64,000 nucleotides of DNA from an uncultured Candidatus Saccharibacteria bacterium (lineage in GTDB: Bacteria; Patescibacteriota; Dojkabacteria; J137). Position 1 is the first letter of the stretch; each line of letters opens with the position of its first letter. The stretch lies in assembly GCA_964393185.1 (NCBI GenBank), contig CAYMSO010000002.1, forward strand, positions 75,915 through 139,914. Reading direction: 5' to 3'. Below, one piece after another: positions 2,311 through 62,847 of this stretch. Position numbers and translations under genes: made by a program. The notes beneath the pieces were generated by a model. It was given only the letters and a program-made list of their open reading frames with translations, was not told where the DNA came from and searched no databases.

Positions 2311-3204
2311 TTATTTTTTACTAAGTTCTTGAATTAAATCGCGCATTTCTGCGGCTTTTTCGAATTCCATCATATCGGCATAAATTTGCATCTGAAATTT
2401 GAGTTCCTTAATAAATTTGGATTGCTCGGACTTGGTCATAGCTTTATACGCCTCGGCTTGCTTCATCAAATTTTCTTCATGATAATCTTTCTCTTCCTCC
2501 TTATCTTTAAATCTATCTAATTGGTTTACAATAGCTTTTTTAATAGAGGTAGGCGTTATTCCGTGTTTCTGATTATATTCTTCCTGAACCTTTCTTCTTC
2601 TTCTTGTTTCGTCGATTGCCCTTTTCATTGAATCAGTGATTTTATCGCAGTACATAATCACTTTACCCTCGGAATGTCTAGCTGCTCTTCCAATTGTCTG
2701 AATCAAACTTGTGTCTGATCGCAAGAAACCTTCTTTGTCGGCATCAAGTATAATAACAAGAGACACTTCCGGCAGATCCAATCCTTCTCTTAGTAAATTG
2801 ATTCCTACAAGAACATCGTAGAGCCCTTTTCGTAAATCCCTCAAAATTTCTACTCGCTCTACTGTATCTATGTCTGAATGTAAATACTTAGCTTTTATAT
2901 CTTTTTCAATTAAATAATCCGACAGTTCCTCGGCCATTCTTTTGGTTAGAGTAGTAATCAAAACACGCTCACCTTTTTTGATTCTAAGATCAATTTCTTT
3001 AAGTACATTTGGGATTTGTGGTTCTGACCAATTGCTGGTTTGTGCAATTGGCATATCTAAATAACCGCATCTTTCAACTTCGTTTTTTAACTGCAAAAAT
3101 GTTTCTGGTAAAGTAGGGCGCAACTCGAGTATGGGATCTAATAGCCCAGTTGGTCTTATGATTTGATAAACAATTCCCTGATAGTCTTTAGGTAAAGTAG
3201 ACAT
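2311..3204 (-). CDS. uvrB: UvrB C-terminal half (RecA-like domain 3 plus UVR domain) as a stand-alone gene
   Basis: 297 aa. Starts MSTLPKDYQ, then [15 protein letters not shown]. Helicase motifs [29 protein letters not shown] and [10 protein letters not shown]-terminal UVR helix [14 protein letters not shown]. Confidence 0.9.
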
Positions 3205-3226
3205 TAAAAATACTTAACGACTCTTA

Positions 3227-3232
3227 ATTATA
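3227..3232 (-). promoter_or_regulatory. Candidate -10 box (TATAAT) 22 nt upstream of the uvrB C-half ATG
   Basis: Minus strand reads ACTTAGGGTATAATTAAGAGTCGTTAAGTATTTTTAATG. No convincing -35 seen. Confidence 0.4.
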
Positions 3233-3261
3233 CCCTAAGTATGTATTTTAGTGAGAGGTTT

Positions 3262-3732
3262 TCACATTAGCTGGTTTTCTGCTCCAGTCCACGACTTGTA
3301 TTCTGCTTCCACTTCTTCAAAAGTTGTAGCTACTTCGCATATAGCTGCCATGTCTGTGACCCTACATTCATATTCAGTAGGATATTTATTAGAAAGTAAA
3401 TGTGCTGCAAGTACTACAATATCATCTTGTCTTACACCTTCTAAGTTCCTTAATTGTGCAAGTTCATAAGTAAAAGTAGCTTCTTCATCGTATGCAAAGT
3501 TGCAAATTGGCGAAACCTGCCTTAAAATTTCGCTAACGTCTAATCCATAGTTATTTATCGCGGTTATAAAATTGATTTCGCTAAAACCTTCTACATTCGA
3601 GAATATACTTTCATATATATTACTGAGGTATTCACGCTCATCCAATACTCTCAAAATTAACTTAGCTTTTCTATCTGGAACAATTCCTGTTGTAAGTAAT
3701 TTTTCTACTAAAAGTTTTTTATTTGTTTTCAT
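3262..3732 (-). CDS. Hypothetical protein (ORFan) at the inner junction next to the uvrB C-half
   Basis: 156-aa ORF with coding-like composition. The antisense ORFs (3251..3469, 3572..3781) look like shadows. No motif recognised. Confidence 0.4.
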   Translation of the reverse strand: MKTNKKLLVEKLLTTGIVPDRKAKLILRVLDEREYLSNIYESIFSNVEGFSEINFITAINNYGLDVSEILRQVSPICNFAYDEEATFTYELAQLRNLEGVRQDDIVVLAAHLLSNKYPTEYECRVTDMAAICEVATTFEEVEAEYKSWTGAENQLM

Positions 3733-3852
3733 AATTGTCGTTAACTATGGGCAACATTATATCATATTTATAGAGTTTTGATAATTAGTCGATATGAGGT
3801 ATTATTAAGTAGTAAAGGAATTATCCTTATCTTTATTTCTTACACTAATAAA

Positions 3853-4290
3853 ATGTTTGGCGATTTAAACAAAGTACAATTAATGGGGAACGTAACTAAT
3901 GATCCTGACCTAAGGTTCACACCAAGTGGTAGTGCAGTTTTAAACTTTAGCATAGCAACCAATCGAAGCTATAAAGTTGGAGAAGAGTGGAAAGAAGAAG
4001 TAGCTTTTCACAATATTGTTGTTTGGAGAAATGCAGAAAGCCTTGCCAAAAGACTAAAAAAAGGTACTAGAATTTATGTTGAGGGTAGGCTAAATACTAG
4101 AAGCTGGGACGATACAGAAACAGGAAAGAAAAATTACAAAACAGAAGTAATTGTCGATAATGTGATTTTGATTGCTAGGTACGAAGGTGAGCATTCAGCA
4201 AGTGCCGGAGAATCTACAGCTAAACCGTCCAAACCAGCTAAAACAGATACAGAAGATGAAGTAATTGATCCAAACGATCTTCCATTCTAA
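3853..4290 (+). CDS. ssb: Single-stranded DNA-binding protein
   Basis: OB-fold sequence NKVQLMGNVTNDPDLRFTPSG...FHNIVVWR, acidic C-terminal tail ending DLPF. ATG at 3853 preferred over the upstream alternative start at 3778. Confidence 0.9.
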   Translation: MFGDLNKVQLMGNVTNDPDLRFTPSGSAVLNFSIATNRSYKVGEEWKEEVAFHNIVVWRNAESLAKRLKKGTRIYVEGRLNTRSWDDTETGKKNYKTEVIVDNVILIARYEGEHSASAGESTAKPSKPAKTDTEDEVIDPNDLPF

Positions 4291-4303
4291 AATTCTAACT
4301 GCT

Positions 4304-4349
4304 CTGTGCAAAACCAAATGTAAAATATTATACATTTGGTTTTGCACAG
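4304..4349 (+). terminator. Perfect 19-bp stem hairpin just downstream of ssb
   Basis: CTGTGCAAAACCAAATGTA-AAATATTA-TACATTTGGTTTTGCACAG. No U-tract follows, so terminator/stabiliser function is inferred. Confidence 0.5.
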
Positions 4350-4364
4350 CAAGAAATACATCAG

Positions 4365-5396: not shown

Positions 5397-5906
5397 CTAG
5401 ATGCTATAAAGAACTATACCTATGCTTGTTCCAACATTTAAGCTTGCACCTTTGCCATACATTGGAATATGCGTTGCTAAATCACACTTGGCTAAAGTAT
5501 CTTTTACTATTCCATAAACTTCACTTCCAGCAATAAAACAGATTTTATTTTCTCTCTGCAAAGTTCTATCCAAAGTATCCATAGGGATTGATTTGTCTGT
5601 CAGTTCTATTGCTACAATACGAAAACCTTGTTTTTTTAATGTATGTATTATCTTGCCAGTATCGCCTTTGCACCATTCAACAGAGGCTTCTTTATTTCTA
5701 GAGGCCTTTCTAAGATCCTTTCCAAAAGGCGGAGTTTTTGTAATACCCGTTAAATATATTCTTTTTACTCCTGCAGCATCGGCTGTTCTAAATATTCCGG
5801 CAACATTTCTTGCGTATTCTATATTTTCTAAAATTAGATAAATAAGCTTATCTCTTTTTTGATCTTTAAACATTTTTTTTATATCCTTTTTTCGTAGTTG
5901 TTTCAT
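5397..5906 (-). CDS. SpoU/TrmH-family RNA 2'-O-methyltransferase
   Basis: Motifs NVAGIFRTADAAGV, FIAGSEVYGI and IPMYGKGASLNVGTSIGIVLY. Confidence 0.8.
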   Translation of the reverse strand: MKQLRKKDIKKMFKDQKRDKLIYLILENIEYARNVAGIFRTADAAGVKRIYLTGITKTPPFGKDLRKASRNKEASVEWCKGDTGKIIHTLKKQGFRIVAIELTDKSIPMDTLDRTLQRENKICFIAGSEVYGIVKDTLAKCDLATHIPMYGKGASLNVGTSIGIVLYSI

Positions 5907-5945
5907 AAATTTTGTTTTGATTTTTCTCTATAGTATAATAGCAGC

Positions 5946-8129: not shown

Positions 8130-9863
8130 TTAATAACCATACTTTGTATTCAACTCATTCAGTAAGTCGTAGTATTCATCAGCAGAGATTTCATTATTAT
8201 TATATCTTTCAGTTATTTCATCATAATCATTTAGATATCCTTCATAATCAAAATCTTCGAAGTTGAAATCATCTAATGAAGAATCATCATAATCATAGTC
8301 ATAATTATAATCTGACTCAATTGATGGTCCCAATGGTTTATATAGATTATCCGTTATCATTGATGTATCGAATAATTGTTCTAAATCCATCTCTCCTACT
8401 AATGCGTTAAAGCCTTCAGTAAAGTCCATATCAGCTTCTGGAACTACTATCTCGTAATCAGAATCGTAGCTTACTGTCAAAAATTGTAATTCAATATTTG
8501 AGGATACTTCGTCTGCATCAAAAGAAACTTTAAGACCGATACCTCTACTAGTGTCATCTTCTTTGTCTGAACACGAAGTCATACTCATCTTAAGATCCAA
8601 ATCTTCTAATGAGTTTTCTAACTCATCCATTGTTTCGTCAATAGATTCTTCAATATCCTCGACTGATTCTTCTCCTTCGTAAGATTCATCTTCAACAATT
8701 ACTTTTGCCATTTTTTTACCACCATTTCTTGTTACTTCTATCATATTTGCGAAATTTACATCTCCTGATACACATTTTGAGTTGCTTTCTTCTCTTATTG
8801 GGTCTACATTTTCCACATTGGAGAATACTTCGTAGTCGTTTATCATATCTTCCAATATGCTCATTAATTTTGGACCCACTCTCTGTAATATTTCTCTGTC
8901 TTCTTCATCCATTGATTCAAGTGTCTGCTCAAGACTAGTGTTAAATTCTTTAATAAAGTCGGATTTGCTTAATTCTTCTGTATCAAGACCATTAGAATAT
9001 GTTTGCAATAATTCAGCGTACTGAGGTATTAATTCAGCAACAAATGATTCTGCATTTATAGTAACTACCTTGTCCTCAATTGCAGCAATTGAATTAATTT
9101 CGTCCTGAGATAAACCTTCTTCTGCATCAATTTCTACATTACTTAGTTTTAAATATCCCTGAAGTTTATCCATTGTATATTCAAAATCTGCCTTGATCAC
9201 ATCTTCTGCTACTCTGTAGTCAAGATTACCTTCAACGTACATTGTTGGTAGCAAATTACCTAATTCTTCAGTATCCAAGTCTTCTAGGTAAGCTTGAAGA
9301 TCTTCTATATCTTCGAGATTATTTTCAGAATAATTTTCTGGATATTCGATGTATAGATCAGCACTTAAAGACATTTCGCCTTCAAAATCATCTTCTTTAT
9401 TTTCAAAATCTACATTCATTTCAATTGTGTTGTAGACAGTTTTTCCAGAAAGATCTATATCTTTTGAAGCAAGATGATTCAACTTGCCTGCAGATTCTTC
9501 GATATCTTCTACAAGCTTTTCTATGTCAAATACTTTCTTTGGATCTTCAGAATCTAATTCATCAAAATTGATAGCATTTATTACTGTTTTAATATTATCC
9601 TTTGCATATGCTTCCAATTCCTCAACTCCCGAATCAGCAGAGCTTACGCTAGAACTATCAGATACATTATTGTAAAGGAAGTATCCACCCAACGCCAAAG
9701 CAGCAGCTACAGCTACAACCCCTGCTACCACTAATCCAAAAGATGTCGGATTTTTCTTAGCAGGTGTTTCGGAAGCAGGAACGCTTTTTTCAGAGTTACT
9801 TACCGTATGCTCTGTCTCTGGCTTTGTTTCCTTTTCTTCCTCCTTGTTTTTTTTCTCCTCCAT
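8130..9863 (-). CDS. Hyper-acidic membrane-anchored protein, function unknown
   Basis: 577 aa. Lys/Glu-rich N-terminus, one TM (FGLVVAGVVAVAAALALGGYFLY), then a long D/E-rich ectodomain ending in DYNYDYDYDD-type tracts. Confidence 0.5.
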   Translation of the reverse strand: MEEKKNKEEEKETKPETEHTVSNSEKSVPASETPAKKNPTSFGLVVAGVVAVAAALALGGYFLYNNVSDSSSVSSADSGVEELEAYAKDNIKTVINAINFDELDSEDPKKVFDIEKLVEDIEESAGKLNHLASKDIDLSGKTVYNTIEMNVDFENKEDDFEGEMSLSADLYIEYPENYSENNLEDIEDLQAYLEDLDTEELGNLLPTMYVEGNLDYRVAEDVIKADFEYTMDKLQGYLKLSNVEIDAEEGLSQDEINSIAAIEDKVVTINAESFVAELIPQYAELLQTYSNGLDTEELSKSDFIKEFNTSLEQTLESMDEEDREILQRVGPKLMSILEDMINDYEVFSNVENVDPIREESNSKCVSGDVNFANMIEVTRNGGKKMAKVIVEDESYEGEESVEDIEESIDETMDELENSLEDLDLKMSMTSCSDKEDDTSRGIGLKVSFDADEVSSNIELQFLTVSYDSDYEIVVPEADMDFTEGFNALVGEMDLEQLFDTSMITDNLYKPLGPSIESDYNYDYDYDDSSLDDFNFEDFDYEGYLNDYDEITERYNNNEISADEYYDLLNELNTKYGY

Positions 9864-11744: not shown

Positions 11745-11747
11745 GAA

Positions 11748-48304: not shown

Positions 48305-48357
48305 TTGAGTGCTAAAGTTAGTTTTGTTATAATTTCCTAACAATTTAGCAAAAGCAT

Positions 48358-48612
48358 TGATTGGGAAGAGAAGTAATTCATCCAATTTAAGAGAGATGAC
48401 GGTAGGTGAAAGTCATTATTGCAAATTACTTCAGCCACCCATGAGCAGACTGCAAGAAAGACAAAAGTCACAAGCAGCTCCGAAAACTACATCGTTAAAG
48501 TAGGTTGTACAAAGTACAACAGAGGCTGTAACAGCAATGTTAGAGCGAATAAAGGTGGTACCACGGAAATCCGTCCTTTGTGTTTAATAAACATAGAGGA
48601 CGGGTTTTTTGG
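48358..48612 (+). promoter_or_regulatory. T-box riboswitch leader, Ala-specific (specifier GCC), with intrinsic terminator
   Basis: Stem I: helix AGTAATT/AATTACT, AG bulge AAGAGAG, distal hairpin GATGAC-GGTAGGTGAAA-GTCATT, specifier loop TCA-GCC-A closed by GGG/CCC. T-box sequence AATAAAGGTGGTACCACGG (48548-48566). Terminator CCGTCCT...AGGACGG plus TTTTTT (48571-48610). Extended -10 at 48325-48333. Confidence 0.75.
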
Positions 48613-48708: not shown

Positions 48709-49194
48709 ATGGGCTATATTAAACGCAAAACACTTCGAAAACCGAGCCATAATTACAATGGAAAATATTCATATTTCATAACAATTTGCACGAAAAATAG
48801 GAAGGAATTCTTCGGCAAAATTGTAAATTCGCAGATGAATTTAACCGATATAGGAGAAACTGCATTGCAATGCTGGAATGAAATACCAATTCATTATCCT
48901 GGTACAAAATTAGATAATTTCGTAATCATGCCTGACCACATACATGGAATATTACATTTAGAAGGAGTGGCAACGCATGCGTTGTCACTTCAATCCGAAA
49001 AGCGCAAATATGATAGATTACCACGTGTCATAGGTGGATTTAAATCAGCAGTATCAAAATTAATCCATCAAAAATTCCCTGATAGAAATTTTAAATGGCA
49101 ACGTTCATACAATGATAAAATAATCATGAATGAATACGAATTAGAAAATGTCAGAAAATATATTATTAAAAATCCATCATTAATCAAAAATTAA
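48709..49194 (+). CDS. IS200/Y1 HUH-type transposase-like protein of the REP-associated (RAYT) kind
   Basis: 161 aa. YSYFITICTKNR, HUH motif MPDHIHGIL, C-terminal WQRSYNDKII (catalytic Tyr region), YIIKNP. Confidence 0.75.
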   Translation: MGYIKRKTLRKPSHNYNGKYSYFITICTKNRKEFFGKIVNSQMNLTDIGETALQCWNEIPIHYPGTKLDNFVIMPDHIHGILHLEGVATHALSLQSEKRKYDRLPRVIGGFKSAVSKLIHQKFPDRNFKWQRSYNDKIIMNEYELENVRKYIIKNPSLIKN

Positions 49195-49226: not shown

Positions 49227-51200
49227 ATGACAAACTCACAAATCTCAAACCACACAACCTCATTTAAAAACTCAAAACTCGAAACTCAAGACCACAAGTC
49301 ATCAAAACAAATACGACACGACTTCATCAATTTCTGGACCTCAAGTCCTAGAAACGCAAAAGAAGTACCAAATGTTTCTCTTGTTCCAAACAACGATCCA
49401 ACTTTACTTTTCGTTAATTCAGGAATGTTTCCAATTAATCCATATTTAGCAGGTCAGCCGCACCCATTGGGAACTAGACTTTGCAATTTACAAAGATGCT
49501 TGAGAACAAACTATGACGAAATGCTCGAAATTGGAGATAACAGGCACACATTAATGTTTGAAATGATGGGTAATTGGTCTTTGGGTGACTTTACAAAAGT
49601 TGATCAAATTCCGTGGATTATGGAATTCTGGGTTAAAGTTTGCGGACTTGATCCTAAAAGACTTTATGTTTCAGTTTTCGAAGGCAATGATGCTGCACCA
49701 CGCGATGATTTGGCAATTGAAACCTGGAAGAAAACCTTCAGAGAGTATGGCGTTGAAGCAGAATTCTCAGATGATATAACAAATATTCCAAAAGATCTAA
49801 AAGAAGGTGAAACATGGAAATATAGAATTTTCCCCTATGGTAAAAAGAAAAATTGGTGGCAAAGAGCTGCTGATGCACCAGGAGAATTAGGCGGCCCAAC
49901 ATCAGAAATGTTTTACGATATGGGAGAAATTATTCAACAACAGGATAAATATCATATTAATGATGATTCTGGAAGATTCATTGAAATTGGGAATAACGTT
50001 TTCATGGAATATAAATTTAGCGAGGAAGGTAAATGGGTTCTAATGGACAAGAAAAATATTGACTTTGGTGGTGGATTCGAAAGAGTAGTTATGATTGTAC
50101 AAAATAAAAAAGATATTTTCGAAACAGATGTGTATGAAGAAGTTCTGGGAGAAATTGAAAAAATCTCAGGCAAACCCTATAAGAAAGATGGCACTGAATA
50201 CGAAATGACTAAATATTTTAGGATTTTAGCTGATCATTCAAGAGCTGCAACATTTATTTTAGCTGACGGGGTTTTGCCTTCAAATAAAGATCAAGGTTAT
50301 ATTCTCAGAAGATTTATTCGAAGATTAGTACGTTATGGAATTATGCTTGGTATAGAAGGTAATTTTACAAAAACTCTTTCAAAAGCTGTAGTCAATTCAA
50401 TGAATTATGCTTATCCGCACCTTAAAGAGAATGAAGACAAGATTCTAGAAGAAATTGAAAAAGAAGAAATTAAATTTAGAAAGACCCTGACTAATGGATT
50501 AAAAGAAATTAGGAAAATGATTGATAGCAAGGTAAATATAGATGGTAAAAAAGCTTTTTATATTTACGAAACCTATGGTTTTCCTTTAGAAATGACTTTA
50601 GATGAATTCAATATTTCAGAAGATTATCAAATTGAAGAGATAAGTAAAGAATTTAATGAAGAACAAGAAAAGCATAGATCACAGTCAAAAGCAGGTGCAG
50701 AACAAAAGTTTAAAGGAGGCCTAGCTGATCAATCTGTAGAAACTACTAAACTGCATACAGCTCATCATCTGCTATTGAAAGCACTGCAACAAGTTTTAGG
50801 TTCAGAAGTTAAGCAACGAGGAAGTAATATTACAGGCGAAAGATTAAGAATTGATTTTAACTATGGAGATAAATTAACAGATGAGCAGGTCAAACAAGTT
50901 GAAGATATAGTTAATCAAAAAATCGCAGAAGGATTAGCAGTAAAAAGAGTTGAAATGCCAAAAGATGAGGCTGAAAAAATTGGAGCGCAAATGGAATTTG
51001 GACAGAAATATCCTGATACAGTTTCAGTTTACTTTATTGGTGCTGATGAAAATAATAAAGGCTGGTTCTCAGCTGAGTTCTGTGGTGGACCACATGTTAA
51101 AAATACTAAAGAAATTGGTGAAGGTGGAAAGAAATTTAAAATCCAAAAGCAGGAAAATGTAGGTGCAGGAACTAGGAGAATTAAAGCTATTTTGCAATAG
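49227..51200 (+). CDS. alaS: Alanine--tRNA ligase, short form (no C-Ala domain)
   Basis: IRHDFINFW, catalytic core, editing domain HTAHHLL and CGGPHV...GTRRIKAI, then a stop 2 aa later. The first ~25 codons overlap a heptamer array. Confidence 0.9.
   Translation: MTNSQISNHTTSFKNSKLETQDHKSSKQIRHDFINFWTSSPRNAKEVPNVSLVPNNDPTLLFVNSGMFPINPYLAGQPHPLGTRLCNLQRCLRTNYDEMLEIGDNRHTLMFEMMGNWSLGDFTKVDQIPWIMEFWVKVCGLDPKRLYVSVFEGNDAAPRDDLAIETWKKTFREYGVEAEFSDDITNIPKDLKEGETWKYRIFPYGKKKNWWQRAADAPGELGGPTSEMFYDMGEIIQQQDKYHINDDSGRFIEIGNNVFMEYKFSEEGKWVLMDKKNIDFGGGFERVVMIVQNKKDIFETDVYEEVLGEIEKISGKPYKKDGTEYEMTKYFRILADHSRAATFILADGVLPSNKDQGYILRRFIRRLVRYGIMLGIEGNFTKTLSKAVVNSMNYAYPHLKENEDKILEEIEKEEIKFRKTLTNGLKEIRKMIDSKVNIDGKKAFYIYETYGFPLEMTLDEFNISEDYQIEEISKEFNEEQEKHRSQSKAGAEQKFKGGLADQSVETTKLHTAHHLLLKALQQVLGSEVKQRGSNITGERLRIDFNYGDKLTDEQVKQVEDIVNQKIAEGLAVKRVEMPKDEAEKIGAQMEFGQKYPDTVSVYFIGADENNKGWFSAEFCGGPHVKNTKEIGEGGKKFKIQKQENVGAGTRRIKAILQ
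49231..49297 (+). repeat. C/A-rich heptamer array overlapping the 5' end of alaS
   Basis: CAAACTC ACAAATC TCAAACC ACACAAC CTCATTT AAAAACT CAAAACT CGAAACT CAAGACC. Confidence 0.7.
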
Positions 51201-52410: not shown

Positions 52411-52429
52411 TAGTTAATTAATTTTGAGT

Positions 52430-53800
52430 ATGAAGCTAGTTACTAATTTAGAAGGAAGCAGTTCAGACAAAAAAAAGAAAGTAGATGTATCGACCAGAAC
52501 AGAAGATACAAAACCCACAAGTAGTGGATCAAGTTTTTATAATAAAGCCACAGAAAGCACAACTAGTGCACAAAATCATGCTCCTTATTCTGAGCCAGAA
52601 AAAACAGTTTATGCAAACACCGGTTCAGAACAAGGAGTAGGAGGGATCTTGAATGATTTAGTAGTAGTGGCATTAAATAAGGGTGCATCCGATATACATA
52701 TCGAACCTACAGAAGAAGCAGTTGTAGTAAGGTACAGAATAGATGGCATACTTAGAGATGCATTTAAAATCGAAAAAAAATACGAAGAATCTCTGATCTT
52801 CAAAATTAAAGTCAATGCCAAGCTAAGAACCGACGAACATTTCGCACCTCAAGATGGAAGAATTACTTTTGAAGTTGGCAAAAAAGTCGATACAAGAATT
52901 TCTATACTACCAACAACAAAAGGTGAGAAAGTAGTCATGAGACTTCTGTCTAAAGAAGGTAAGTCTTTTAAACTAGAAGATTTAGGTATGGGAGAGGAGG
53001 ATTTACTGAAAGTAACCAGAGCATATCTTAAACCTTACGGATCTATAATAGTATCTGGACCAACTGGTTCGGGAAAAACAACAACTTTGTATTCTATTCT
53101 TCAGATAATTAACTCGAGAGATATAAACATTACTACAGTTGAGGATCCGGTGGAATACGAAATTGAAGGCGTTAATCATGTCCAAATTAATGTTAAGGCA
53201 GGTCTAACTTTTGCAAAAGGTTTAAGATCAATACTTAGACAAGATCCTAATATAATAATGATAGGTGAAATCAGAGACGCCGAAACTGCAGAAATTGCAA
53301 CAAATTCGGCTATGACAGGCCACTTAGTGTTATCTACCATCCACACTAATGATGCCATCACAACCATTCCAAGACTAATCGATATGGGAGTAGACCCCTA
53401 TCTAATTGCAAATACCCTAAATGTAGTGATTGCCCAGAGACTTGCGCGAAGACTTTGCCAAAAATGTAAAGTTGAATACAAAATTACACAAAAAGATTTA
53501 GATGCACTAAGTTATTATCGACCAGACTTAACCAAGCTTTTAAAACCTGAAGAAACAGTATTTAAAGAAACAGGTTGTAAAGAGTGCGCTTCTGGATTTA
53601 AAGGTAGAGTTGGTCTTTACGAAGTACTAGAAATCACCGAAGAAATGCAAAAACTTATTCTATTAAAAACCAGTACAGACGAGATATTTAAAGTTGCTCG
53701 ATCTAAAGGATTAAAGTTGATTGTTGAAGATGGAATTGATAAGCTAAGAAAAGGAATTACCAGTCTTAGCGAAGTAATGAGGGTTACTGCATTAAAATAA
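52430..53800 (+). CDS. pilB: Type IV pilus assembly ATPase (GspE/PilB family)
   Basis: Walker A SGPTGSGKTTT, Asp box, Walker B IIMIGEIRD, His box STIHTND, tetracysteine CQKC...CKEC. Confidence 0.9.
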   Translation: MKLVTNLEGSSSDKKKKVDVSTRTEDTKPTSSGSSFYNKATESTTSAQNHAPYSEPEKTVYANTGSEQGVGGILNDLVVVALNKGASDIHIEPTEEAVVVRYRIDGILRDAFKIEKKYEESLIFKIKVNAKLRTDEHFAPQDGRITFEVGKKVDTRISILPTTKGEKVVMRLLSKEGKSFKLEDLGMGEEDLLKVTRAYLKPYGSIIVSGPTGSGKTTTLYSILQIINSRDINITTVEDPVEYEIEGVNHVQINVKAGLTFAKGLRSILRQDPNIIMIGEIRDAETAEIATNSAMTGHLVLSTIHTNDAITTIPRLIDMGVDPYLIANTLNVVIAQRLARRLCQKCKVEYKITQKDLDALSYYRPDLTKLLKPEETVFKETGCKECASGFKGRVGLYEVLEITEEMQKLILLKTSTDEIFKVARSKGLKLIVEDGIDKLRKGITSLSEVMRVTALK

Positions 53801-54030
53801 AAAACTACGAACTGAAGTTCATAGTTTTATGTTGTTAATGAAGAAGCTTAATTAAAAGACTAATCTCCATCCATTGGCTAAAGCCAATGGTTTTAAGATT
53901 AGTTTACAATAAAAAACTACGGACGTAAGTCCATAGTTTTATATTATTAAGTAAGAAGCTTAATTTGAAGACTAATCTCCTTCCATTGGCTAAAGCCAAT
54001 GATTTTAAGATTAGTTTACAATAAAGTAGC
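53800..54030 (+). repeat. Two tandem copies of a ~115-nt structured repeat in the pilB-pilC spacer
   Basis: Copies 53800-53912 and 53913-54030 are about 90 percent identical by eye. Each has hairpin 1 (AAAACTA-C-GAAC-TGAA-GTTC-A-TAGTTTT) and a long hairpin with inner stem CCATTGGC-TAAA-GCCAATGG and outer stem GACTAATCT/AGATTAGTT. Confidence 0.85.
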
Positions 54031-54112
54031 CAATTGAACTACACTCTATTATAAAAATTGCTCTACAAGCCACAACAAAATCAATGGGCCTAAGAGTGAA
54101 ACAATAAAAATT

Positions 54113-55261
54113 ATGTTTTGGAAAAAAAAGTCGAATTCTGCTCTGCAAGAAGAGCATGCACAAAGCAAACCAGACAAAAAGAAAAATGTAATGTCTGCTG
54201 AATTTCATATATTTGGAGTTTCTAAAATAGCTATTGCTTTAAGCATAAGACATTTATCCTTAATGCTAAAATCAGGACTTGCGCTGGGAGATGCAATTCA
54301 GATACTTGCCGAAAAAACTATTGACACTAGACTACAGAAAACATATTCAAAAATTTCTCAAAATATTCAATCAGGTATGACTCTTAGCGATTCAATGAAA
54401 GAACATCCAAAAGTCTTTAGTGATATAGTCATATCCATTGTAAGTATAGGAGAACAAGGTGGAACCTTAGAGAAAAATTTAGAATTTTTGGCAGATTATT
54501 TAAAAAAAGGTCACGAACTAAGCAAAAAAGTTAAAGGTGCTTTGATTTATCCAGGTATAGTCTTTACTATGACAATTGTAGAAATGGTAGGAGTTATGTT
54601 TTTTATTTTACCTAAGCTAGAAGAATTATTTTCATCTTTCTCTAATATACCCAAATTTACGCAAGGTATATTGAACATTTCATTATTCATGAGAGAAAAT
54701 GTGCTATTTATAGTAATAGGAATATTATTAATAATAACTTCCTGGATCGTGTTCATGCGAACGAAAAGAGGAAAGTACTTCAAAGATTGGATGTCTTTGA
54801 ATTTACCTGTAATAAAAAGCCTAACTTCTAATAATATTTTGGCAACATTTGCAAGAACACTCGGTATACTCTTAGAAACAGGTATACCTATTGTTCACGC
54901 ACTAGAAATCACTTCGAGTACAGTAGGCAATAGAATATACCAAAAAGCTCTAACGCAAGTACACGACAGCGTAAAATCAGGGCAGAACTTGGCTCAGTCG
55001 CTGGAGCAATTCGAAAAGTTATTCCCTCCAACCTTTACTAAGATGGTAGAAATCGGAGAAAATACCGCTTCGTTGGAAACTAACTTAGGATACCTTTATG
55101 ACTTTCATGCAAATGAAGTTGAAGATATTAGCACAAATCTTACAACCCTAATAGAACCCATATTATTAATCTTTATAGGCTCGATGATTGGATTACTAGC
55201 TATAATTATTATAGGGCCAATTTATCAATTTACTGGAAGTGTTAGTACAACTCCTACATGA
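54113..55261 (+). CDS. pilC: Type IV pilus platform protein (GspF/PilC family)
   Basis: 382 aa, duplicated GspF domains, 3 TM helices. Confidence 0.9.
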   Translation: MFWKKKSNSALQEEHAQSKPDKKKNVMSAEFHIFGVSKIAIALSIRHLSLMLKSGLALGDAIQILAEKTIDTRLQKTYSKISQNIQSGMTLSDSMKEHPKVFSDIVISIVSIGEQGGTLEKNLEFLADYLKKGHELSKKVKGALIYPGIVFTMTIVEMVGVMFFILPKLEELFSSFSNIPKFTQGILNISLFMRENVLFIVIGILLIITSWIVFMRTKRGKYFKDWMSLNLPVIKSLTSNNILATFARTLGILLETGIPIVHALEITSSTVGNRIYQKALTQVHDSVKSGQNLAQSLEQFEKLFPPTFTKMVEIGENTASLETNLGYLYDFHANEVEDISTNLTTLIEPILLIFIGSMIGLLAIIIIGPIYQFTGSVSTTPT

Positions 55262-55719
55262 AAGCTTTATGTTCGAAAAGAGGCTTTACATTAGTTGAGA
55301 TGCTTATTGTTATGGGCTTACTTGTAAGTGCAACAGCCGTAATTATACCCATATCTGTAAAACTTCTTAGAAGCAATCGCACAGAATCAGTAGCCAAAAG
55401 TGTCTATTCAGATACATTTCTTACGCAGCAGAATGCATACACAGGACTAGGTAATACTAACCACGGCATAGCATTCTTTGTTAACAGGTACGAAATATAT
55501 ACAGGCAATTCTTTAAGCGAAGCAACAAGTAAAGAAATAGTTTATCTTCCTAATAACGTAAGTATTATAAACATAAATTTTAATACCTCTAACGAAGTAA
55601 GATTTGCAAGAGGTGCGTTTAGACCAGTAGCTGATGGTAGTTTTATAGTGAGCGATGCCAGTAATTCTTACTTAATAACTATTAACAAGGAAGGCGCAAT
55701 TTTCTATGAAAAGATTTAA
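55258..55719 (+). CDS. Minor pilin / pseudopilin
   Basis: KRGFTLVEMLIVMGLL prepilin signal. ATGA overlap with pilC. Confidence 0.75.
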   Translation: MKALCSKRGFTLVEMLIVMGLLVSATAVIIPISVKLLRSNRTESVAKSVYSDTFLTQQNAYTGLGNTNHGIAFFVNRYEIYTGNSLSEATSKEIVYLPNNVSIININFNTSNEVRFARGAFRPVADGSFIVSDASNSYLITINKEGAIFYEKI

Positions 55720-57622
55720 CAATAAAGGTTTTAGTTTAGTCGAAATTATTTTGGCAATAAGTTTATTTACACTTGTTATTTCTAGCGTAGTCTTTTTTTC
55801 TATAGATTCGTACAGATTTACACAAACTAATGAGAAAAGAATAAAAGCGGCTTTATACATTCAAGAAACGATGAATGCTTTAACCCTTAGTAAGCACGAA
55901 CTTTGGCAAAATATTTTAGAAAATACAGATGATGGCGAAAAATCTATATTGTACCAAGATAACAAATATCGATTAGTTGATGGTCCTTCTACCAAAAACG
56001 GAATCACTACTAGCTTCACAATAAACAAGGTATTTAGAGATGCCAATGGAAATATAATTGATACAGGTGGAATAGAGGACTTACATACTCGTAAAATAGA
56101 TATAACATCACGATGGCCAGACCTAACCGGTGCAAATGTTACTGTCAGCAACAGAATTTATGTTAGTGATTGGCAAACTATTACCTGGCAGCAATCCACA
56201 AATACAGAGTTTAGTCTAGGGCAGTTAAGCCAAACACTTGTTACAAATAACTCAGGTGGTGAAGTTGAATTGGAAAAAGAATTAGTTACTGACTGGTGCA
56301 AACCTGAACTTACCCAAGCGGTATACAATTTACCAGGTAGTGGTGCACCTACACTAATTAGCTCGCTTCCAGGTAATGCTTATATTGGCTCAAGTTCTAC
56401 AAGCTCATCCTTGCAAGGTATTGATATTAATCACTCAGTAAGTCCGGCTACTGTAAATGTTAATAGTACTTTTACTGGTTATGCAACCAAGGCAATTTTT
56501 GCAGAACCAAACTATGCATACTTGGCAACAACTAGTAATAGCAAAGAAGTTGTAATAGTTAATACTTCCACAAATCCTTTTACCGAAATTGGTTATTTTA
56601 ATGCGTCAGGTACGGCCGATGCTGAAAGCGTTGCAGTGGCTGGCAATGTAGGTTATGTTGCACACGGTAGAGTCTTAAGTTCATTTAATCTTTCTAGCAA
56701 AACTGGATCAAGAGCAGTAATAGATACAATAACATTAAGCTCATATTTTGCATATATAACAGAAATAGAAATAAGAGGAAACTACTTATATGCTACTTTA
56801 TATAATGATTTAGATGAATTGGTGATTGTAGATATATCCAATCCCAGCAACTTAAGAGAAGTAGCAACTGGAGATGTAAACGTTCAACAAGCATACGATC
56901 TATTTGTTTCGGAGGATGGAAACAAAGTGTATTTTGGCACAAATTCCTCTTCAGCTAAAGACTTTTTTGTAATAGATACCTCAGTAAAATCAGGAGTACG
57001 ACCGGTAATTGGACAATACGAAACAAATGGTATGTCTGTACGTGGAGTAACAGTAATAGACAATAGAGCCATAATCGTAGGAACTGGTGGAGAAGAGTAC
57101 CAGGTAGTTGATGTGAGTAATCCGGCTTCGATGACTCGTTGTGGAGGATTGCAAGTTAATACAGGGCTTACAGGTGTAAATTCTGTAACAACTTTGGATG
57201 GCGACAGGTATTCGTACGTAATAGGAAATGATACTTCTGCAGAATTTAGAATTGTACAAGGTGGTCTTGGCAATGGCTATGGATACAGATATTTAGAAAC
57301 TGGCACATTTGCTTCACCTATTCACGATACCGGGTCTAGCAAAACAGCATATTATGTAATTGAGTGGAAAAGCCAGATTCCGCAATCTACTAACCTAAGA
57401 TTACAATTAAAAGTAGGGAATCAACCTGATTTGAGTGATGGAGTTCTTGTTGGACCAGACGGAACTGGCAATACATATTTTACTAACTCACTTGGTGAGT
57501 TTATAAATTACTCGGCCAGTAAGAATAAAAGATACTTTCAGGTAGTGGCTTATTTTAACTCTGATTCTGAGCTTATTAATTCTCCAGTTTTAGAAGAATT
57601 TAAAATTAATTATCAAAAATGA
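55706..57622 (+). CDS. Giant pilin-like protein: prepilin N-terminus fused to an LVIVD-repeat beta-propeller-like domain
   Basis: NKGFSLVEIILAISLF signal. LVIVD-type repeats VVIVNTSTNP, LVIVDISNPSNL, FFVIDTSVKS, YQVVDVSNPASM. Confidence 0.7.
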   Translation: MKRFNNKGFSLVEIILAISLFTLVISSVVFFSIDSYRFTQTNEKRIKAALYIQETMNALTLSKHELWQNILENTDDGEKSILYQDNKYRLVDGPSTKNGITTSFTINKVFRDANGNIIDTGGIEDLHTRKIDITSRWPDLTGANVTVSNRIYVSDWQTITWQQSTNTEFSLGQLSQTLVTNNSGGEVELEKELVTDWCKPELTQAVYNLPGSGAPTLISSLPGNAYIGSSSTSSSLQGIDINHSVSPATVNVNSTFTGYATKAIFAEPNYAYLATTSNSKEVVIVNTSTNPFTEIGYFNASGTADAESVAVAGNVGYVAHGRVLSSFNLSSKTGSRAVIDTITLSSYFAYITEIEIRGNYLYATLYNDLDELVIVDISNPSNLREVATGDVNVQQAYDLFVSEDGNKVYFGTNSSSAKDFFVIDTSVKSGVRPVIGQYETNGMSVRGVTVIDNRAIIVGTGGEEYQVVDVSNPASMTRCGGLQVNTGLTGVNSVTTLDGDRYSYVIGNDTSAEFRIVQGGLGNGYGYRYLETGTFASPIHDTGSSKTAYYVIEWKSQIPQSTNLRLQLKVGNQPDLSDGVLVGPDGTGNTYFTNSLGEFINYSASKNKRYFQVVAYFNSDSELINSPVLEEFKINYQK

Positions 57623-58116: not shown

Positions 58117-58499
58117 ATCTGATAAGTTTAAAAAAAGGAAGCGCAGCATTAACAACAGTCATCCTGGTATCTGGAATTCTGTTTAGCGCTGGTCTTGGAT
58201 TAATTTTGTTAAGCATGGATCTGGCATTAACATCTAAGGGATTTAATCTAAAAACAAGAACAGAATTTAATACATTAAGCTGCCTCGAAGAAAGTTTAAG
58301 ATTGATAAAAAATAACGAATCCTTTGTAGGAACTATTTCTCCTAACAATCCCGTAGGATCTTGTACTGCTAATATAACTATAGATTCTGTTAATCCAAAT
58401 TATAGAGTAGTGCAAGTAACAAGCTCCATTCAAAACTACACTTTTAGCAAAACAGAAAAGGTAGACATTTCAACCGATCCTATAACTCTAGTTAAATAA
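58113..58499 (+). CDS. Pilin-like protein with degenerate signal (PilX-like candidate)
   Basis: LKKGSAALTTVILVSGILF. ATGA overlap with the preceding gene. Confidence 0.5.
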   Translation: MNLISLKKGSAALTTVILVSGILFSAGLGLILLSMDLALTSKGFNLKTRTEFNTLSCLEESLRLIKNNESFVGTISPNNPVGSCTANITIDSVNPNYRVVQVTSSIQNYTFSKTEKVDISTDPITLVK

Positions 58500-59127
58500 A
58501 TAGAATAAAACCAATTCTTAAATTTAATACAAAGGCAATCATTGCACCAAAGATTAAAAATGGTACAAAAGGTATTTGAATATTCTTGATTCTTTTATAA
58601 TAAATAATTAAAGGTACTGATACCACAAGAGCAAGATAAATAGCAATATACAAACCAATAATCATTTTCTCTAATCCTATAAGTAAACCTATTAAAGCTA
58701 ATATTTTTATATCCCCCCCACCCATACCTTTCTCTTTTGTTATTAAAACTATAATCAATATAATAATTCCTCCAACAACTCCGCCGATTAAATTTTGCAG
58801 TGGATTAGGCAGTATATGGATCGGTTTATTACTAAAACCATAAATTATTCCCAATACGATATTACTTGTACCACTAACTAGAATTAGAGAATTTACAAGT
58901 TTAAGTGGAATTTCTAAATATAAAATATCAAACAGTATTAAATAGCCTAGTACTTGGAAGAATAAAAAGCTTACTAAAGTTACCACTAATCCCAAACTAT
59001 TTTGTGTCAAGAAAAACAGAAACAAGCACTCTGTAAGCACCAGCGAGGCAATAATAGATAGTTTAGTAAGTTTGTCAGAATTGATAAACTGATTCCAATC
59101 TTTTTGTAAGATTTTAAATGGGGACAT
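58492..59127 (-). CDS. pilD: Prepilin peptidase (A24 family)
   Basis: Polytopic. GGGDIKILALIGLLIG aspartyl motif. Confidence 0.8.
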   Translation of the reverse strand: MSPFKILQKDWNQFINSDKLTKLSIIASLVLTECLFLFFLTQNSLGLVVTLVSFLFFQVLGYLILFDILYLEIPLKLVNSLILVSGTSNIVLGIIYGFSNKPIHILPNPLQNLIGGVVGGIIILIIVLITKEKGMGGGDIKILALIGLLIGLEKMIIGLYIAIYLALVVSVPLIIYYKRIKNIQIPFVPFLIFGAMIAFVLNLRIGFILFI

Positions 59128-59129
59128 AG

Positions 59130-60092
59130 TTAAGACGACTCTGTAATATGTTTGGCTTGCTCTCGATCTACAGTTGTCTTATTTAATAAATATACCATCA
59201 AAAAACCTACAGTAACTAGAATTATTGTTATTATTATATCTATAAATTCGTAAGTAGTTGGGCTTACAATGTTTCTAACCTCATTACCATTCGAATCAAT
59301 TTCGGATTCAAAAAATGGCCATATTACCCTTAGGGACGCCAACATTATTCCAAAAAAGCAGGCAAGAAGCTCCGAGGTATATTTTTCGAAGATTATTTTA
59401 AATAATCTTATAAATACCAAAAATCCAAAAGTCAATCCAAGTACAAAAACCACTAAGCCTTGAAGATCTTTTAGGTTGGCTTCAAATCTAGTTAGGTTTT
59501 TTATTATATCCACTTCGTAATCATAAATTCCCATTACCAAAAGAATAAACGACCCGCTAATGCCCGGCAAAATTAAACCAGTTATTCCTATTACTCCTCC
59601 TAAAAATAGGAAGGGTAGGCTAGGATCTTTAACAGCGTTTGGCTTTAACCCTAACAGTAGAAAGGCAATCGCAAAACTTACAATTGCAATTATGTAGTGT
59701 CTTGCATTAGGTCTTTTTATTTCTTTCCATGGTATAAATGCAGAAGCTAAAACAACTCCAAAAAAGAAATCTACAACGTAGTTGGGGTAATTTTCTCTTA
59801 GCGTGTGTATTAGATTTGAAAGTAATGCAATTGCCAAAATCATTCCAATTACTAGTTTTATTCCAAACTCCCACTTTATTTTAAAGAAAGATTCTTTAAT
59901 TTTTTTATAATTACTTTTTCCAAGAACAAAGAATAAAACTTCCTGAGCGAGCCTGGAACAATCGCTTAACAGGTTGATAAAATCATCGTATACACCCATA
60001 ACAATTGCTAAGTTAGATCCATTTACTCCTGGTATCATTTCCCCGATTCCCATTATTGCACCTTGTAGCATTGGTAGTAGTTTTTTTCCCAT
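59130..60092 (-). CDS. DUF368-family membrane protein (polyprenyl-phosphate transporter family)
   Basis: Repeated GEMIPGVNGS / ILPGISGSF motifs typical of DUF368. ATG at 60092 is preferred over the TTG at 60110. Confidence 0.7.
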   Translation of the reverse strand: MGKKLLPMLQGAIMGIGEMIPGVNGSNLAIVMGVYDDFINLLSDCSRLAQEVLFFVLGKSNYKKIKESFFKIKWEFGIKLVIGMILAIALLSNLIHTLRENYPNYVVDFFFGVVLASAFIPWKEIKRPNARHYIIAIVSFAIAFLLLGLKPNAVKDPSLPFLFLGGVIGITGLILPGISGSFILLVMGIYDYEVDIIKNLTRFEANLKDLQGLVVFVLGLTFGFLVFIRLFKIIFEKYTSELLACFFGIMLASLRVIWPFFESEIDSNGNEVRNIVSPTTYEFIDIIITIILVTVGFLMVYLLNKTTVDREQAKHITESS

Positions 60093-60108
60093 TTGACTAA
60101 TATAGCAC

Positions 60109-60133
60109 AAAAAACCCCCGTTTTTAACGGGGG
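60109..60133 (-). terminator. Rho-independent terminator
   Basis: Minus strand reads CCCCCG-TTAAAAA-CGGGGG followed by TTTTTT. Downstream of the gene ending at 60221. Confidence 0.75.
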
Positions 60134-60220
60134 TAGCTTTAGCTTTAATTTTACTCAGCTAACACGCGATCAATTATATCTTTAGCTTTATAACCTCGTA
60201 ACACAGTTGTGTCACTACTT

Positions 60221-61351
60221 TTAGCTCAGTTTTAGTGCTCGATCAATGTTGTCTGGAGTTGCTTTAGTTATGATGTCTGGCAGTTCATCGTGTTCGTCGG
60301 TAAAACCCAATCTCTGTACATTTAGATAAAGATGATGAGCAATAGTTGTCATTATATTATCAGCTTGAAAGTGGCCATATGCGACTCTCTCCAATGCGGA
60401 CTCAAGAAAAGCGCTTGGAGCAGAAGCGAGAAATAATTCTCTGGCTCCTAAGAACTGAACTGCCGGCGTAATCTTGTGTAGTCCAGAATTTGTATAGCGA
60501 TTAATTATACTATTGCCATCAGGATTATTAGATAAATCTTCCATCAAAACTGCATTGCCCTGAATCAGATCCATAACTTTAGTATGAGTACTTTTTCTAT
60601 GGGCAATTTTCCTTTGCTGATTAGATCCGCGACTGATAATCAAAGCAGCATCGAGTTGAGCAATAGCTGACTGTACTTCTCTTCTCCTTACATTAATATA
60701 TCTACTCTTATTTTCACCAGCTAGTATAGAAAATTTATCTGCTATCTCTTGAGGTAGCATACTTCCACAACATATTGCAGTTAAAATGCCTGCAGTTACT
60801 CCATACCTTCGGGATATTCCTAGCAATATTCTATCTCTATTAGGAATATGTATTTCTTTATTAACCAAATCTCCTAAATGTTGGTACACAGGTTTAAACA
60901 TATTTACCTGCAAGGTAGGTTTGCCTTCAATTTCAAACCTAGTAACAGGAAAAACTGAGTTACGCCTTTCTACAACATAAGCACGTCCCTCATTATCTTT
61001 ATTACGAATCCGTATTATATAATCTTGTCCATTTCTACCTTCAATACATTGAACTAAACTTCGTTGCAATCTGTTACCCTGTAATATAAAGTCGTCAAAC
61101 TCCTGGGTATTATTTATGGCTTTGCCTATAATATGTTGCAATATCGAGCCGGCTATTTGCGTATTAGTACCATTTGGCAATTGCACCATAATATTCTCAA
61201 CTTCACCAGATAAATATGCTTCTATATTTTGTGGAGTACCAGGTAATGTCCCATGCTGATTGGCAATAGAGCGAAAAGTATCTACTGTAAGACCTTTTAC
61301 AACTTCTGGCATTTCCAAGCTGTTAGACATGTATAGCTCATGATCACTCAT
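60221..61351 (-). CDS. Hypothetical protein (ORFan) at the inner junction next to the uvrB N-half
   Basis: Long ORF with no motif. ATG at 61351 preferred, because the first 21 codons of the track ORF are AT-rich promoter-like sequence with TATAAT boxes. Confidence 0.4.
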   Translation of the reverse strand: MSDHELYMSNSLEMPEVVKGLTVDTFRSIANQHGTLPGTPQNIEAYLSGEVENIMVQLPNGTNTQIAGSILQHIIGKAINNTQEFDDFILQGNRLQRSLVQCIEGRNGQDYIIRIRNKDNEGRAYVVERRNSVFPVTRFEIEGKPTLQVNMFKPVYQHLGDLVNKEIHIPNRDRILLGISRRYGVTAGILTAICCGSMLPQEIADKFSILAGENKSRYINVRRREVQSAIAQLDAALIISRGSNQQRKIAHRKSTHTKVMDLIQGNAVLMEDLSNNPDGNSIINRYTNSGLHKITPAVQFLGARELFLASAPSAFLESALERVAYGHFQADNIMTTIAHHLYLNVQRLGFTDEHDELPDIITKATPDNIDRALKLS

Positions 61352-61555
61352 AATATCAATATAAATTATAAAGCGAATAATTATACTATAGTCGCCATAT
61401 TTTGACAACATCATATAGTTGGCAAAAGATTATAATTCTATTTTACCAAGACCTTGATTCTAGTAAGTAAACTTTTAACCTTCGATTAGAAATGCTAGTT
61501 ACCCAATGAAAATGAAAGTATCCTGAAGTAAATTAAGGTAAACTAATCAGAAGTA

Positions 61556-61608
61556 GTTATAACTCATAACCCCATTCCGAAAACCTATGACTGATAACTG
61601 ATAACCAA
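61556..61608 (+). repeat. Short mixed heptamer array abutting the stop codon of the uvrB N-half
   Basis: ATAACTC ATAACCC CATTCCG AAAACCT ATGACTG ATAACTG ATAACCA. Confidence 0.7.
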
Positions 61609-62847
61609 TTACTTATTATACAATCTTGCGCTTTCCTTACTTTGTTCTATCTCGTATTGCCTAGGAGTTGCAGACAAGTACACTACCTGGTTCAATCTGC
61701 TTTTAAATTCTTCAAACTTTAGTGGCCGGTTATCTAGTGCAGCTCTTAATCTGAAGCCATAATCTACAAGATTTTGTTTTCTGGATCTATCGCCTTCGTA
61801 CATACCTCCAATTTGCGGCACAGTAATATGAGATTCATCTATAAACATGAGGTAATCATCGGGAAAATAATCTAACAGGCAGGACCCTGCCGTTCCAGGG
61901 GCCCTTTTGTCAAAATATCTTGAATAATTTTCTATCCCTTTTGTAAAACCAGTTTCCCTAAGCATTTCTAAATCGTATGCGACTCTTTGCTTTAACCTGG
62001 CTGCTTCTATCATTTTGCCAGTATCGGTAAAAGCTTTCACTTCTTTTTCTGCATCTATTTCTATTTGCTGTATTGCATCGTTGACTTTGTCTTGTGGGCT
62101 TACGTAATGTTTAACAGGAAAAATTTTGTAAGAATCAACTCTTCTGATTAATTCGCCGCTTATTGGGTTTATTAATTTGATAGATTCAACTTCATCTCCA
62201 AACATTTCTAGTCTGACTGCTTGATCATCTGCCAAAGACAAATTTATATCTATAATTTCGCCTCTGACTCTAAAGCTTCCATTTCTAAAATCTTGCGTAC
62301 CTCTTTCGTACTGCATATCTGTTAATCGGCTAAATAGCTTGTCTCTATTTAGTGTTTGACCTACTTTAAGCTCTGCACTTAATGCAAGATAGTCATTTGG
62401 ATTACCCAGACCGTATATACAGCTTACTGTAGCAACTATTACCACATCTCTCCGAGTTAACAAATTCTGAGTTGCAGTATTCCTATATTTTTCGATTGTT
62501 TCGTTAATATCTGAATCTTTTTCTATATACAAATCCCTTTGCGGAACGTAAGCTTCTGGTTGATAATAATCATAGTAGCTAACAAAGTAAGAAACTGCAT
62601 TTTCCGGAAAGAATTCTCTAAATTCGGAAAATAACTGTGCTGCCAGGGTTTTGTTATGAGAAATAATAATGGTTGGTCTACCTGTATTTTGAATCACATT
62701 AGCCATTGTAAATGTTTTACCTGTTCCAGTTGCACCAATAATTGTCTGATGTTCAAGACCAGCTTGTATACCTGCAGTTATCAATTCAATTGCTTGTGGC
62801 TGATCCCCAGAAGGTTTATATTGTGAATTTAACTTAAAAGTAGACAT
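61609..62847 (-). CDS. uvrB: UvrB N-terminal half (domains 1a/1b/2 with beta-hairpin) as a stand-alone gene
   Basis: 412 aa. Walker A GATGTGKTFT, YYDYYQPEAY, FIDESHITVPQ, ends VYLSATPRQYEIEQSKES plus ARLYNK and a stop. Confidence 0.9.
   Translation of the reverse strand: MSTFKLNSQYKPSGDQPQAIELITAGIQAGLEHQTIIGATGTGKTFTMANVIQNTGRPTIIISHNKTLAAQLFSEFREFFPENAVSYFVSYYDYYQPEAYVPQRDLYIEKDSDINETIEKYRNTATQNLLTRRDVVIVATVSCIYGLGNPNDYLALSAELKVGQTLNRDKLFSRLTDMQYERGTQDFRNGSFRVRGEIIDINLSLADDQAVRLEMFGDEVESIKLINPISGELIRRVDSYKIFPVKHYVSPQDKVNDAIQQIEIDAEKEVKAFTDTGKMIEAARLKQRVAYDLEMLRETGFTKGIENYSRYFDKRAPGTAGSCLLDYFPDDYLMFIDESHITVPQIGGMYEGDRSRKQNLVDYGFRLRAALDNRPLKFEEFKSRLNQVVYLSATPRQYEIEQSKESARLYNK

Follow-up and report, generated by a model that had tools for sequence, protein, structure and literature searches.

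UvrB is a textbook single-chain protein in nearly all bacteria, with an ATPase site formed between two RecA-like domains that a hinge normally tethers. Some other DNA enzymes are encoded in two pieces. In split-intein genes, such as cyanobacterial dnaE, an essential DNA enzyme is divided over two distant genes that carry intein halves at the break, and the two products are ligated after translation. The reverse gyrases of Nanoarchaeum equitans and Methanopyrus kandleri are each encoded by two separated genes whose products form an active heterodimer, with the split lying between the helicase and topoisomerase modules in N. equitans and inside the topoisomerase in M. kandleri (PMC4117796). Here we describe a uvrB gene in two halves, found in a stretch of 64,000 nucleotides from a member of the Dojkabacteria (assembly GCA_964393185.1, contig CAYMSO010000002.1, positions 75,915 to 139,914; hereafter the window). 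We propose that an ancient and now fixed fission of uvrB took place in one clade of the Dojkabacteria (Patescibacteria/Candidate Phyla Radiation) and gave rise to a two-subunit UvrB, a reading to which we assign a probability of roughly 0.8.

The split reverse gyrases resemble the UvrB halves in being DNA enzymes with a superfamily 2 (SF2) helicase module in hosts with reduced genomes. However, their splits fall outside the pair of RecA lobes, whereas in the Dojkabacteria UvrB the ATP site itself is divided. Unlike the split-intein genes, which carry intein fragments, the uvrB halves carry no intein sequence. The locus also differs from interrupted genes of the skin or nifD-element type in that the interval consists of core genes, the junctions have no repeats in common beyond chance and the orientation of the halves varies among carriers. 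Gene fission that yields a heteromeric enzyme is therefore a known type of event, but it is unusual that the cut parts the two halves of an ATPase motor. Our literature search, the coverage of which was incomplete, returned neither a description of a split uvrB nor a discussion of uvrB in Dojkabacteria, and a search on naturally split helicases did not return a split uvrB either.

The sequence-only reading of this DNA had named two open reading frames (ORFs) as the parts of uvrB, and their coordinates and strand proved correct (Table 1). The N-half corresponds to UvrB residues 1 to about 406 and the C-half to the remainder. In alignments with UvrB chains from the PDB, residues 3-406 of the N-half were matched with an E-value of 1e-155, while the C-half covered PDB UvrB residues 405-658; the identity to the single-chain proteins of Bacillus caldotenax/Geobacillus and B. 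subtilis was 51-55%. Pfam matches to UvrB_inter and ResIII were obtained for the N-half, with the UvrA-interaction domain 2 (PF17757) at residues 159-248 (E 1.4e-29), and matches to Helicase_C, UvrB (PF12344) and UVR for the C-half. Walker A, the beta-hairpin and the DESH box had been placed on the first ORF and motifs IV-VI with the UVR domain on the second, and all of them were recovered: Walker A at residues 38-45, motif Ia at 64-72, the beta-hairpin at 91-111, DESH at 337-340 and SATP at 392-395 of the N-half, and motifs IV, V and VI at residues 81-92, 133-147 and 169-177 of the C-half, followed by UVR at the C-terminus. These are the domains and motifs of canonical single-chain UvrB (1D9Z, 3UWX, 2D7D, 6O8E) in the same order. 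The differences from canonical UvrB are the two genes and polypeptides, a hinge that is about 18 aa longer and a helical insertion of 30 aa in domain 3.

When the unsplit relative P0108 (711 aa) was compared with the window by tblastn, its residues 1-407 matched positions 62850-61627 and its residues 416-711 matched positions 3201-2317, and no further UvrB-like piece was found in the whole window. The two ORFs thus tile one UvrB that is short of only eight residues of a variable loop, which agrees with the alignment to solved UvrBs and largely bears out the tiling claimed beforehand. The NCBIfam uvrB models (TIGR00631/NF003673, cutoffs 743-750 bits) gave 629-633 bits for the N-half (model positions 1-403) and 339-343 bits for the C-half (model positions 425-657). 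Neither polypeptide alone passes the equivalog cutoff, which is exceeded solely by the summed scores. This is probably why NCBI gives the halves the generic names 'DEAD/DEAH box helicase family protein' and 'UvrB/UvrC motif-containing protein'. Both junctions were found again in a second assembly, that of Logan run SRR8109492, in which separate contigs match window positions 59321-64000 at 99.98% and 968-3409 at 100%. Apart from being two polypeptides, the protein is a UvrB in all sequence and fold features.

Searches for related proteins were made in NCBI, ENA, JGI and Logan assemblies; the counts refer to sequence clusters and are lower bounds. The N-half search yielded at least 104 proteins, 398-441 aa long and 64-80% identical to it, and full-length proteins (668-721 aa) entered this search only under about 67% identity. 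With the C-half, at least 120 stand-alone proteins were obtained (283-329 aa, 65-76% identity), and the full tally is at least 121 C-halves. All named carriers of halves belong to Candidatus Dojkabacteria or Patescibacteria. When an unsplit relative served as the query, UvrBs of about 700-720 aa were returned that, where named, likewise belong to Dojkabacteria/WS6. Since both split and unsplit UvrBs occur in Dojkabacteria, the fission occurred inside this class. The unsplit proteins of other Dojkabacteria/WS6 (for example P0108, P0110, and P0412 from 'candidate division WS6 bacterium OLB20') are 64-67% identical to the window halves, and unsplit Dojkabacteria UvrBs have in common with the split clade the extended hinge, the YxG(I/V)V(E/Y)QII motif, the domain-3 insertion and the flanking genes; unlike in the split clade, their UvrB is one continuous ORF.

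In neighbour-joining trees all split sequences fall on one side of a single branch and the unsplit proteins of about 700-720 aa on the other, with bootstrap values of 100/100 for the N part and 66/100 for the C part. The lowest pairwise identities within the split clade are 0.62 for the N part and 0.57 for the C part. At each of the five loci examined, the half has a proper stop or start codon and is adjoined by other genes. A 50%-representative search with the C-half returned mostly contig-end fragments, and P0242 was the sole true stand-alone C-half among the short candidates that were read, so that no independent split in another phylum came to light among these. Contigs of 0.1-1.1 Mb carry both halves, and among the best 120 unsplit matches none was an intact Dojkabacteria-type uvrB from a half-bearing contig. 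Overall, the same split with the same end points is present in more than 100 Dojkabacteria sequence clusters, which answers the earlier suggestion to check sister genomes for it.

The DNA between the two halves is core chromosome with an even G+C content of 0.31-0.37. It encodes SSB, an Exo_endo_phos protein, a SpoU methylase, tRNA-Cys, gpmI, tgt, a Mur ligase, mraY, uvrC, an ATP-dependent DNA ligase, a HerA/TrwB-like ATPase, a P-type ATPase, a T-box leader followed by alaS, and pilB, pilC and a prepilin peptidase. The presence of alaS, mraY, gpmI, tgt and tRNA-Cys had been cited earlier as an argument against a simple mobile-element insertion. All five were found again, together with the Mur ligase and uvrC, and the argument holds, as the intervening DNA belongs to the core chromosome. 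The halves lie on the same strand with the N-half first in the window (58.4 kb apart), in GCA_964437465.1 (45.3 kb) and in JGI Ga0613827_000009 (48.8 kb). In a contig of 1.14 Mb, they are about 280 kb apart on opposite strands and convergent, which rules out co-transcription and simple excision.

The genes around uvrB indicate how the split arose. The order at the unsplit locus is HhH-GPD glycosylase, uvrB, two small genes, aspS, S30AE, one further gene and mnmA. In split genomes, HhH-GPD is retained upstream of the N-half and S30AE and/or mnmA beside the C-half; mnmA lies downstream of the unsplit uvrB in contig L093 and of the C-halves in L004, L007 and L089, as it does in the window. This retention of the flanks points to one breakpoint inside the gene. 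We also considered a duplication followed by complementary loss, which would not give the observed flank pattern. The ancestor would have had a UvrB of about 710 aa, in which an unusually long and variable hinge loop joined the first and second RecA-like domains. The gene may then have been parted in two by a rearrangement that broke the DNA encoding this loop at one point, an inversion being the simplest case; the upstream piece would have acquired a stop codon, and the downstream piece a start codon and expression signals of its own. A single inversion would yield the convergent arrangement directly, and later rearrangements could account for the others.

Next to the position in the genome, the position of the break within the protein is informative. 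Between SATP and RPTG, ordinary UvrBs have 16 residues, as read from the PDB alignments. In unsplit Dojkabacteria this spacing is 28-47 residues, with a variable centre between conserved flanks that read YELxLS(K/R)Q... on the N-side and ...LPxDYxG(I/V)VEQII on the C-side. The N-halves of the split clade extend 17-18 residues past SATP, with the pattern xxYE(L/I)xxSxx(S/A)A(K)(E)(V)L(G), and the S at position 8 of this tail is present in 104/104 sequences. The C-halves have 16-18 residues ahead of RPTG, with the pattern M..LP(K/E)(N/D)YxGIVYQII; in this head L, P, Y and G are invariant or almost so (n=120 C-halves), and the motif is present in unsplit relatives too. The window itself has 17 aa after SATP and 16 aa before RPTG. 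Tail and head add up to 33-35 aa, which is within the linker size of 28-47 aa in unsplit proteins. Taken together, tail and head represent the old linker with flank motifs common to both forms, so the break fell in the variable centre of the loop. By sequence comparison, it sits in a lineage-specific, length-variable expansion of the hinge loop. The end residues ARLYNK and MSTLPKDYQ, previously taken to be novel, are therefore inherited linker, homologous to the hinge of unsplit relatives.

It had also been proposed that the cut lies at the hinge between the two RecA-like domains. It does lie within the hinge loop, but probably one beta-strand before the second domain. In other SF2 proteins, the final strand of the first RecA-like domain comes after motif III. 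By analogy, the strand in the head of the C-half is probably part of domain 1a, which would put the cut one strand ahead of the domain boundary. Two residues distinguish the split clade from its unsplit relatives: residue 13 of the C-half (window 3166-3168) is Y in 106/120 C-halves, giving GIVYQII instead of G(I/V)VEQII, and residue 347 of the N-half (window 61807-61809) is G in 88% of split sequences (PQ(I/V)GGMY) and R in 88% of unsplit ones (PQxRGMY). The domain-3 insertion of about 30 aa (LPETFxxLKxxxERCGYxDMP...W..PQ) is a feature of Dojkabacteria only, occurs in split and unsplit proteins alike and is thus older than the fission; it was modelled as two helices with a predicted local distance difference test score (pLDDT) of 95-98.

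We then compared the substitution patterns of five N-half and five C-half genes taken from contigs. In both halves, the proportion of synonymous differences (pS) was 0.63-0.82, at or near saturation, versus a proportion of nonsynonymous differences (pN) of 0.15-0.20. The ratio of the corresponding rates (dN/dS) was 0.05-0.15 where dS was computable, and was alike for the two halves. GRAAR, LLREGLD and KEGFLRS are invariant in 95 C-halves. Residues Arg506, Asp510, Phe527, Arg540 and Arg543 (B. subtilis numbering), which contribute to ATPase activity and DNA contacts and are named as essential in the UvrB literature (PMC3458569), are invariant in the C-halves as well. Judged from these sequences, both halves are under strong purifying selection, and the low pN, the saturated pS and the invariant motifs exclude decay. 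The initial view that these are two polypeptides and not a decaying gene is thereby upheld, with intact frames and motifs in more than 100 clusters of one clade, while their function as a complex is inferred.

A model of the window N- and C-halves as one joined sequence, made with AlphaFold2 (AF2), had a pLDDT of 88.6 and a predicted template modelling (TM) score of 0.82. It superimposed on PDB UvrB chains with TM scores of 0.84-0.88, normalised to target length. In this model, the tail of the N-half forms a helix (residues 397-410, pLDDT 94), and residues IVY of the head (423-425) are placed in a beta-bridge with a pLDDT of about 90, ahead of the strand that opens domain 3. When modelled alone, the C-half still folds (pLDDT 82.5), but its head is coil (pLDDT 74-78) and the strand is lost. 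The head is therefore ordered only when the N-half is present, which fits an ordering of the head by the other chain. For the N-half, a fragment of Thermus thermophilus UvrB (PDB 7egt, 411 residues) aligns with query residues 11-403 at a TM score of 0.93, normalised to target length. This crystallised fragment has nearly the extent of the N-half and folds alone, but it is a laboratory truncation without a natural C-terminal partner.

Because domain 3 contributes the residues that complete the ATP site of UvrB, the two proteins must meet for an active enzyme to form, and the invariance of the motifs on both chains argues that the composite site is still formed and that the proteins associate. 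UvrB is thus most likely a two-subunit enzyme in these bacteria. UvrB-N, with domains 1a, 1b and 2, would provide ATP binding, the beta-hairpin and the contact to UvrA. UvrB-C, with the hinge strand and domains 3 and 4, would provide the arginines of motif VI including the arginine finger, the DNA contacts of domain 3 and the UVR domain that binds UvrC. The two would associate non-covalently as a heterodimer that has the usual architecture of UvrB and an ATP site built in trans. The gene for the partner nuclease, uvrC, is intact. Based on the model, we hypothesise that the conserved head of UvrB-C (LPxxYxGIVYQII) packs as a strand on UvrB-N and that the tail helix of UvrB-N completes this clasp.

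Several points weigh against this interpretation. Binding of the halves to each other and working nucleotide excision repair (NER) in these organisms are predictions. The chain modelled by AF2 was covalently joined and UvrB was part of the AF2 training data, so the canonical arrangement in the model is not an independent proof. The interface between the RecA lobes of SF2 proteins is generally small, and a stable association without a tether is not guaranteed. Moreover, the tree of the C part gives only moderate support (66/100) for a single clade, the lack of a second, intact uvrB in this genome is only indirectly supported, and uvrA, lying outside the window, was not seen.

The alternative that deserves most weight is that no stable complex is formed. 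UvrB-N might then act with UvrA as a damage-verification clamp and UvrB-C as a separate, perhaps transiently recruited, arginine-finger/UvrC factor, or one half might have taken on another role. The genomic arrangement would allow this: the loci are unlinked, have different neighbours and in one genome are 280 kb from each other on opposite strands, so that nothing forces the two genes to be expressed together. In addition, domain 2 with its UvrA contact and the UVR domain with its UvrC contact are on different chains, and 7egt indicates that an N-terminal UvrB fragment is stable on its own. However, the invariance of all ATPase motifs on both chains makes sense only if a composite site is in use. 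Conservation and predicted order of the new termini are what an interface would be expected to show, and the halves evolve at an equal rate. We therefore regard such a division of roles without a stable complex as unlikely.

A rejoining of the gene, whether by excision or inversion of DNA, by trans-splicing of RNA or by a split intein, is suggested by the three genomes in which the halves have the same strand and N-to-C order at distances of 45-58 kb, the topology of an interrupted gene. We consider it very improbable. The two ends, only 17 and 16 aa long, show homology to the linker and have no intein match in Pfam, and neither an intron nor another RNA family was found at the junctions with Rfam. 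The longest repeat common to the junctions is 7-8 nt, versus a mean of 8 in shuffled sequence, and excision of the interval would remove alaS, mraY, the Mur ligase, tgt, gpmI and uvrC, with a loss of core genes. The genome with halves on opposite strands also argues against rejoining, as does the stop or start codon that every half read has of its own. Equally hard to credit is a decaying pseudogene or an assembly artefact. Split ORFs in metagenome bins are often due to frameshifts or chimeras, and the generic NCBI names could be seen in this light, but the identical split recurs in more than 100 clusters from four sources, the window junctions recur in a second assembly, both halves occur together on contigs of 0.1-1.1 Mb, and purifying selection is strong with ORFs and motifs intact. 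What remains best supported is a gene fission followed by maintenance of both products.

The halves had further been described as separately promoted. A TATAAT box is indeed found upstream of each half (Table 1), but these are consensus matches only: in scans for promoters and terminators of this AT-rich window, matches were no commoner than in shuffled sequence, and no -35 hexamer was matched for the box of the C-half. No Shine-Dalgarno sequence is visible before the N-half (62845-62884), and none is obvious in the 22-nt spacer of the C-half. If the -10 box of the N-half is used, its mRNA would be leaderless or almost so.

Table 1. Positions of the uvrB halves, their parts and associated features in the window.
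Feature	Position	Strand	Remarks
uvrB N-half gene, 412 aa	61609..62847	(-)	Domains 1a, 1b and 2: Walker A, motif Ia, beta-hairpin, UvrA-interaction domain, DESH, SATP
C-terminal tail of N-half (YEIEQSKESARLYNK)	61612..61656	(-)	Extended hinge helix; homologous to the first part of the unsplit Dojkabacteria hinge linker
Promoter-like site of N-half, CTGACA-17-TATAAT	62856..62884	(-)	Consensus match; -10 box (62856-62861) ends 8 nt before ATG
uvrB C-half gene, 297 aa	2311..3204	(-)	Hinge strand, domain 3 (motifs IV-VI), UvrB domain, C-terminal UVR domain binding UvrC
N-terminal head of C-half, 24 aa	3133..3204	(-)	Conserved second linker part and strand into domain 3
Domain-3 insertion, ~30 aa (LPETF...WSEPQ), C-half residues 32-63	3016..3111	(-)	Absent from PDB UvrBs
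TATAAT box of C-half	3227..3232	(-)	22 nt upstream of ATG; consensus match only
mnmA	247..1410	(-)	Ancestral downstream-flank marker of uvrB, kept beside the C-half
uvrC, partner nuclease, 514 aa	28670..30214	(+)	GIY-YIG, UVR, UvrC_RNaseH_dom; TIGR00194 351 bits (cutoff 285); between the uvrB halves

Other genes in the window include further repair functions. The RNase H-like endonuclease domain of UvrC reaches residue 500, and no Pfam match was found for a C-terminal helix-hairpin-helix domain. Convergent with uvrC is a gene for an ATP-dependent DNA ligase of the archaeal/eukaryotic three-domain type (DNA_ligase_A_N/M/C, 619 aa; 30906-32765, (-)), and the two form a small repair cluster. A T-box leader (48348-48581, (+)), which passed the gathering score with 105 bits, precedes alaS (49227-51200, (+)) by about 650 bp. 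The encoded AlaS is short, with 657 aa (629-647 aa in relatives), and an ORF of 161 aa (48709-49194) is located between the T-box and alaS; the T-box may control this ORF, alaS or both. A type IV pilus set with a PilB-like ATPase, a PilC-like platform protein and a prepilin peptidase is encoded at 52424-55261 (+) and 58492-59127 (-), and a LVIVD-repeat protein of 638 aa at 55706-57622. Five large ORFs gave no Pfam match, all on the (-) strand: 42423-45083 (886 aa), 32972-34813 (613 aa), 8130-9863 (577 aa), 60221-61414 (397 aa) and 62885-63910 (341 aa). The last two flank the uvrB N-half, and the same neighbours are found in the independent contig L094. In GCA_964437465.1 (L088, 5276-9242), the gene after the N-half encodes an alpha-2-macroglobulin-like protein (MG2, A2M_BRD, A2M) with a length of more than 1591 aa, which is unusual for so small a genome.

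A more far-reaching possibility, which we put forward as a doubtful one, is that this UvrB is the first natural SF2-type motor with its RecA-like lobes as separate gene products, held by the clasp of hinge strand and tail helix. Conditional assembly, for example on damaged DNA loaded by UvrA, could then serve as a checkpoint for ATPase activity and UvrC recruitment. The split provides a natural experiment on the importance of the covalent hinge in SF2 motors and on the reassembly of split enzymes, and likewise on the tolerance of breakpoints in essential-type genes when these fall within a pre-existing long loop. As each half scores below the cutoff, these genomes may be recorded as lacking NER or as having it only in part, and marker or completeness estimates based on uvrB may err. 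For the Dojkabacteria themselves, the split is a clean shared derived character of one subclade.

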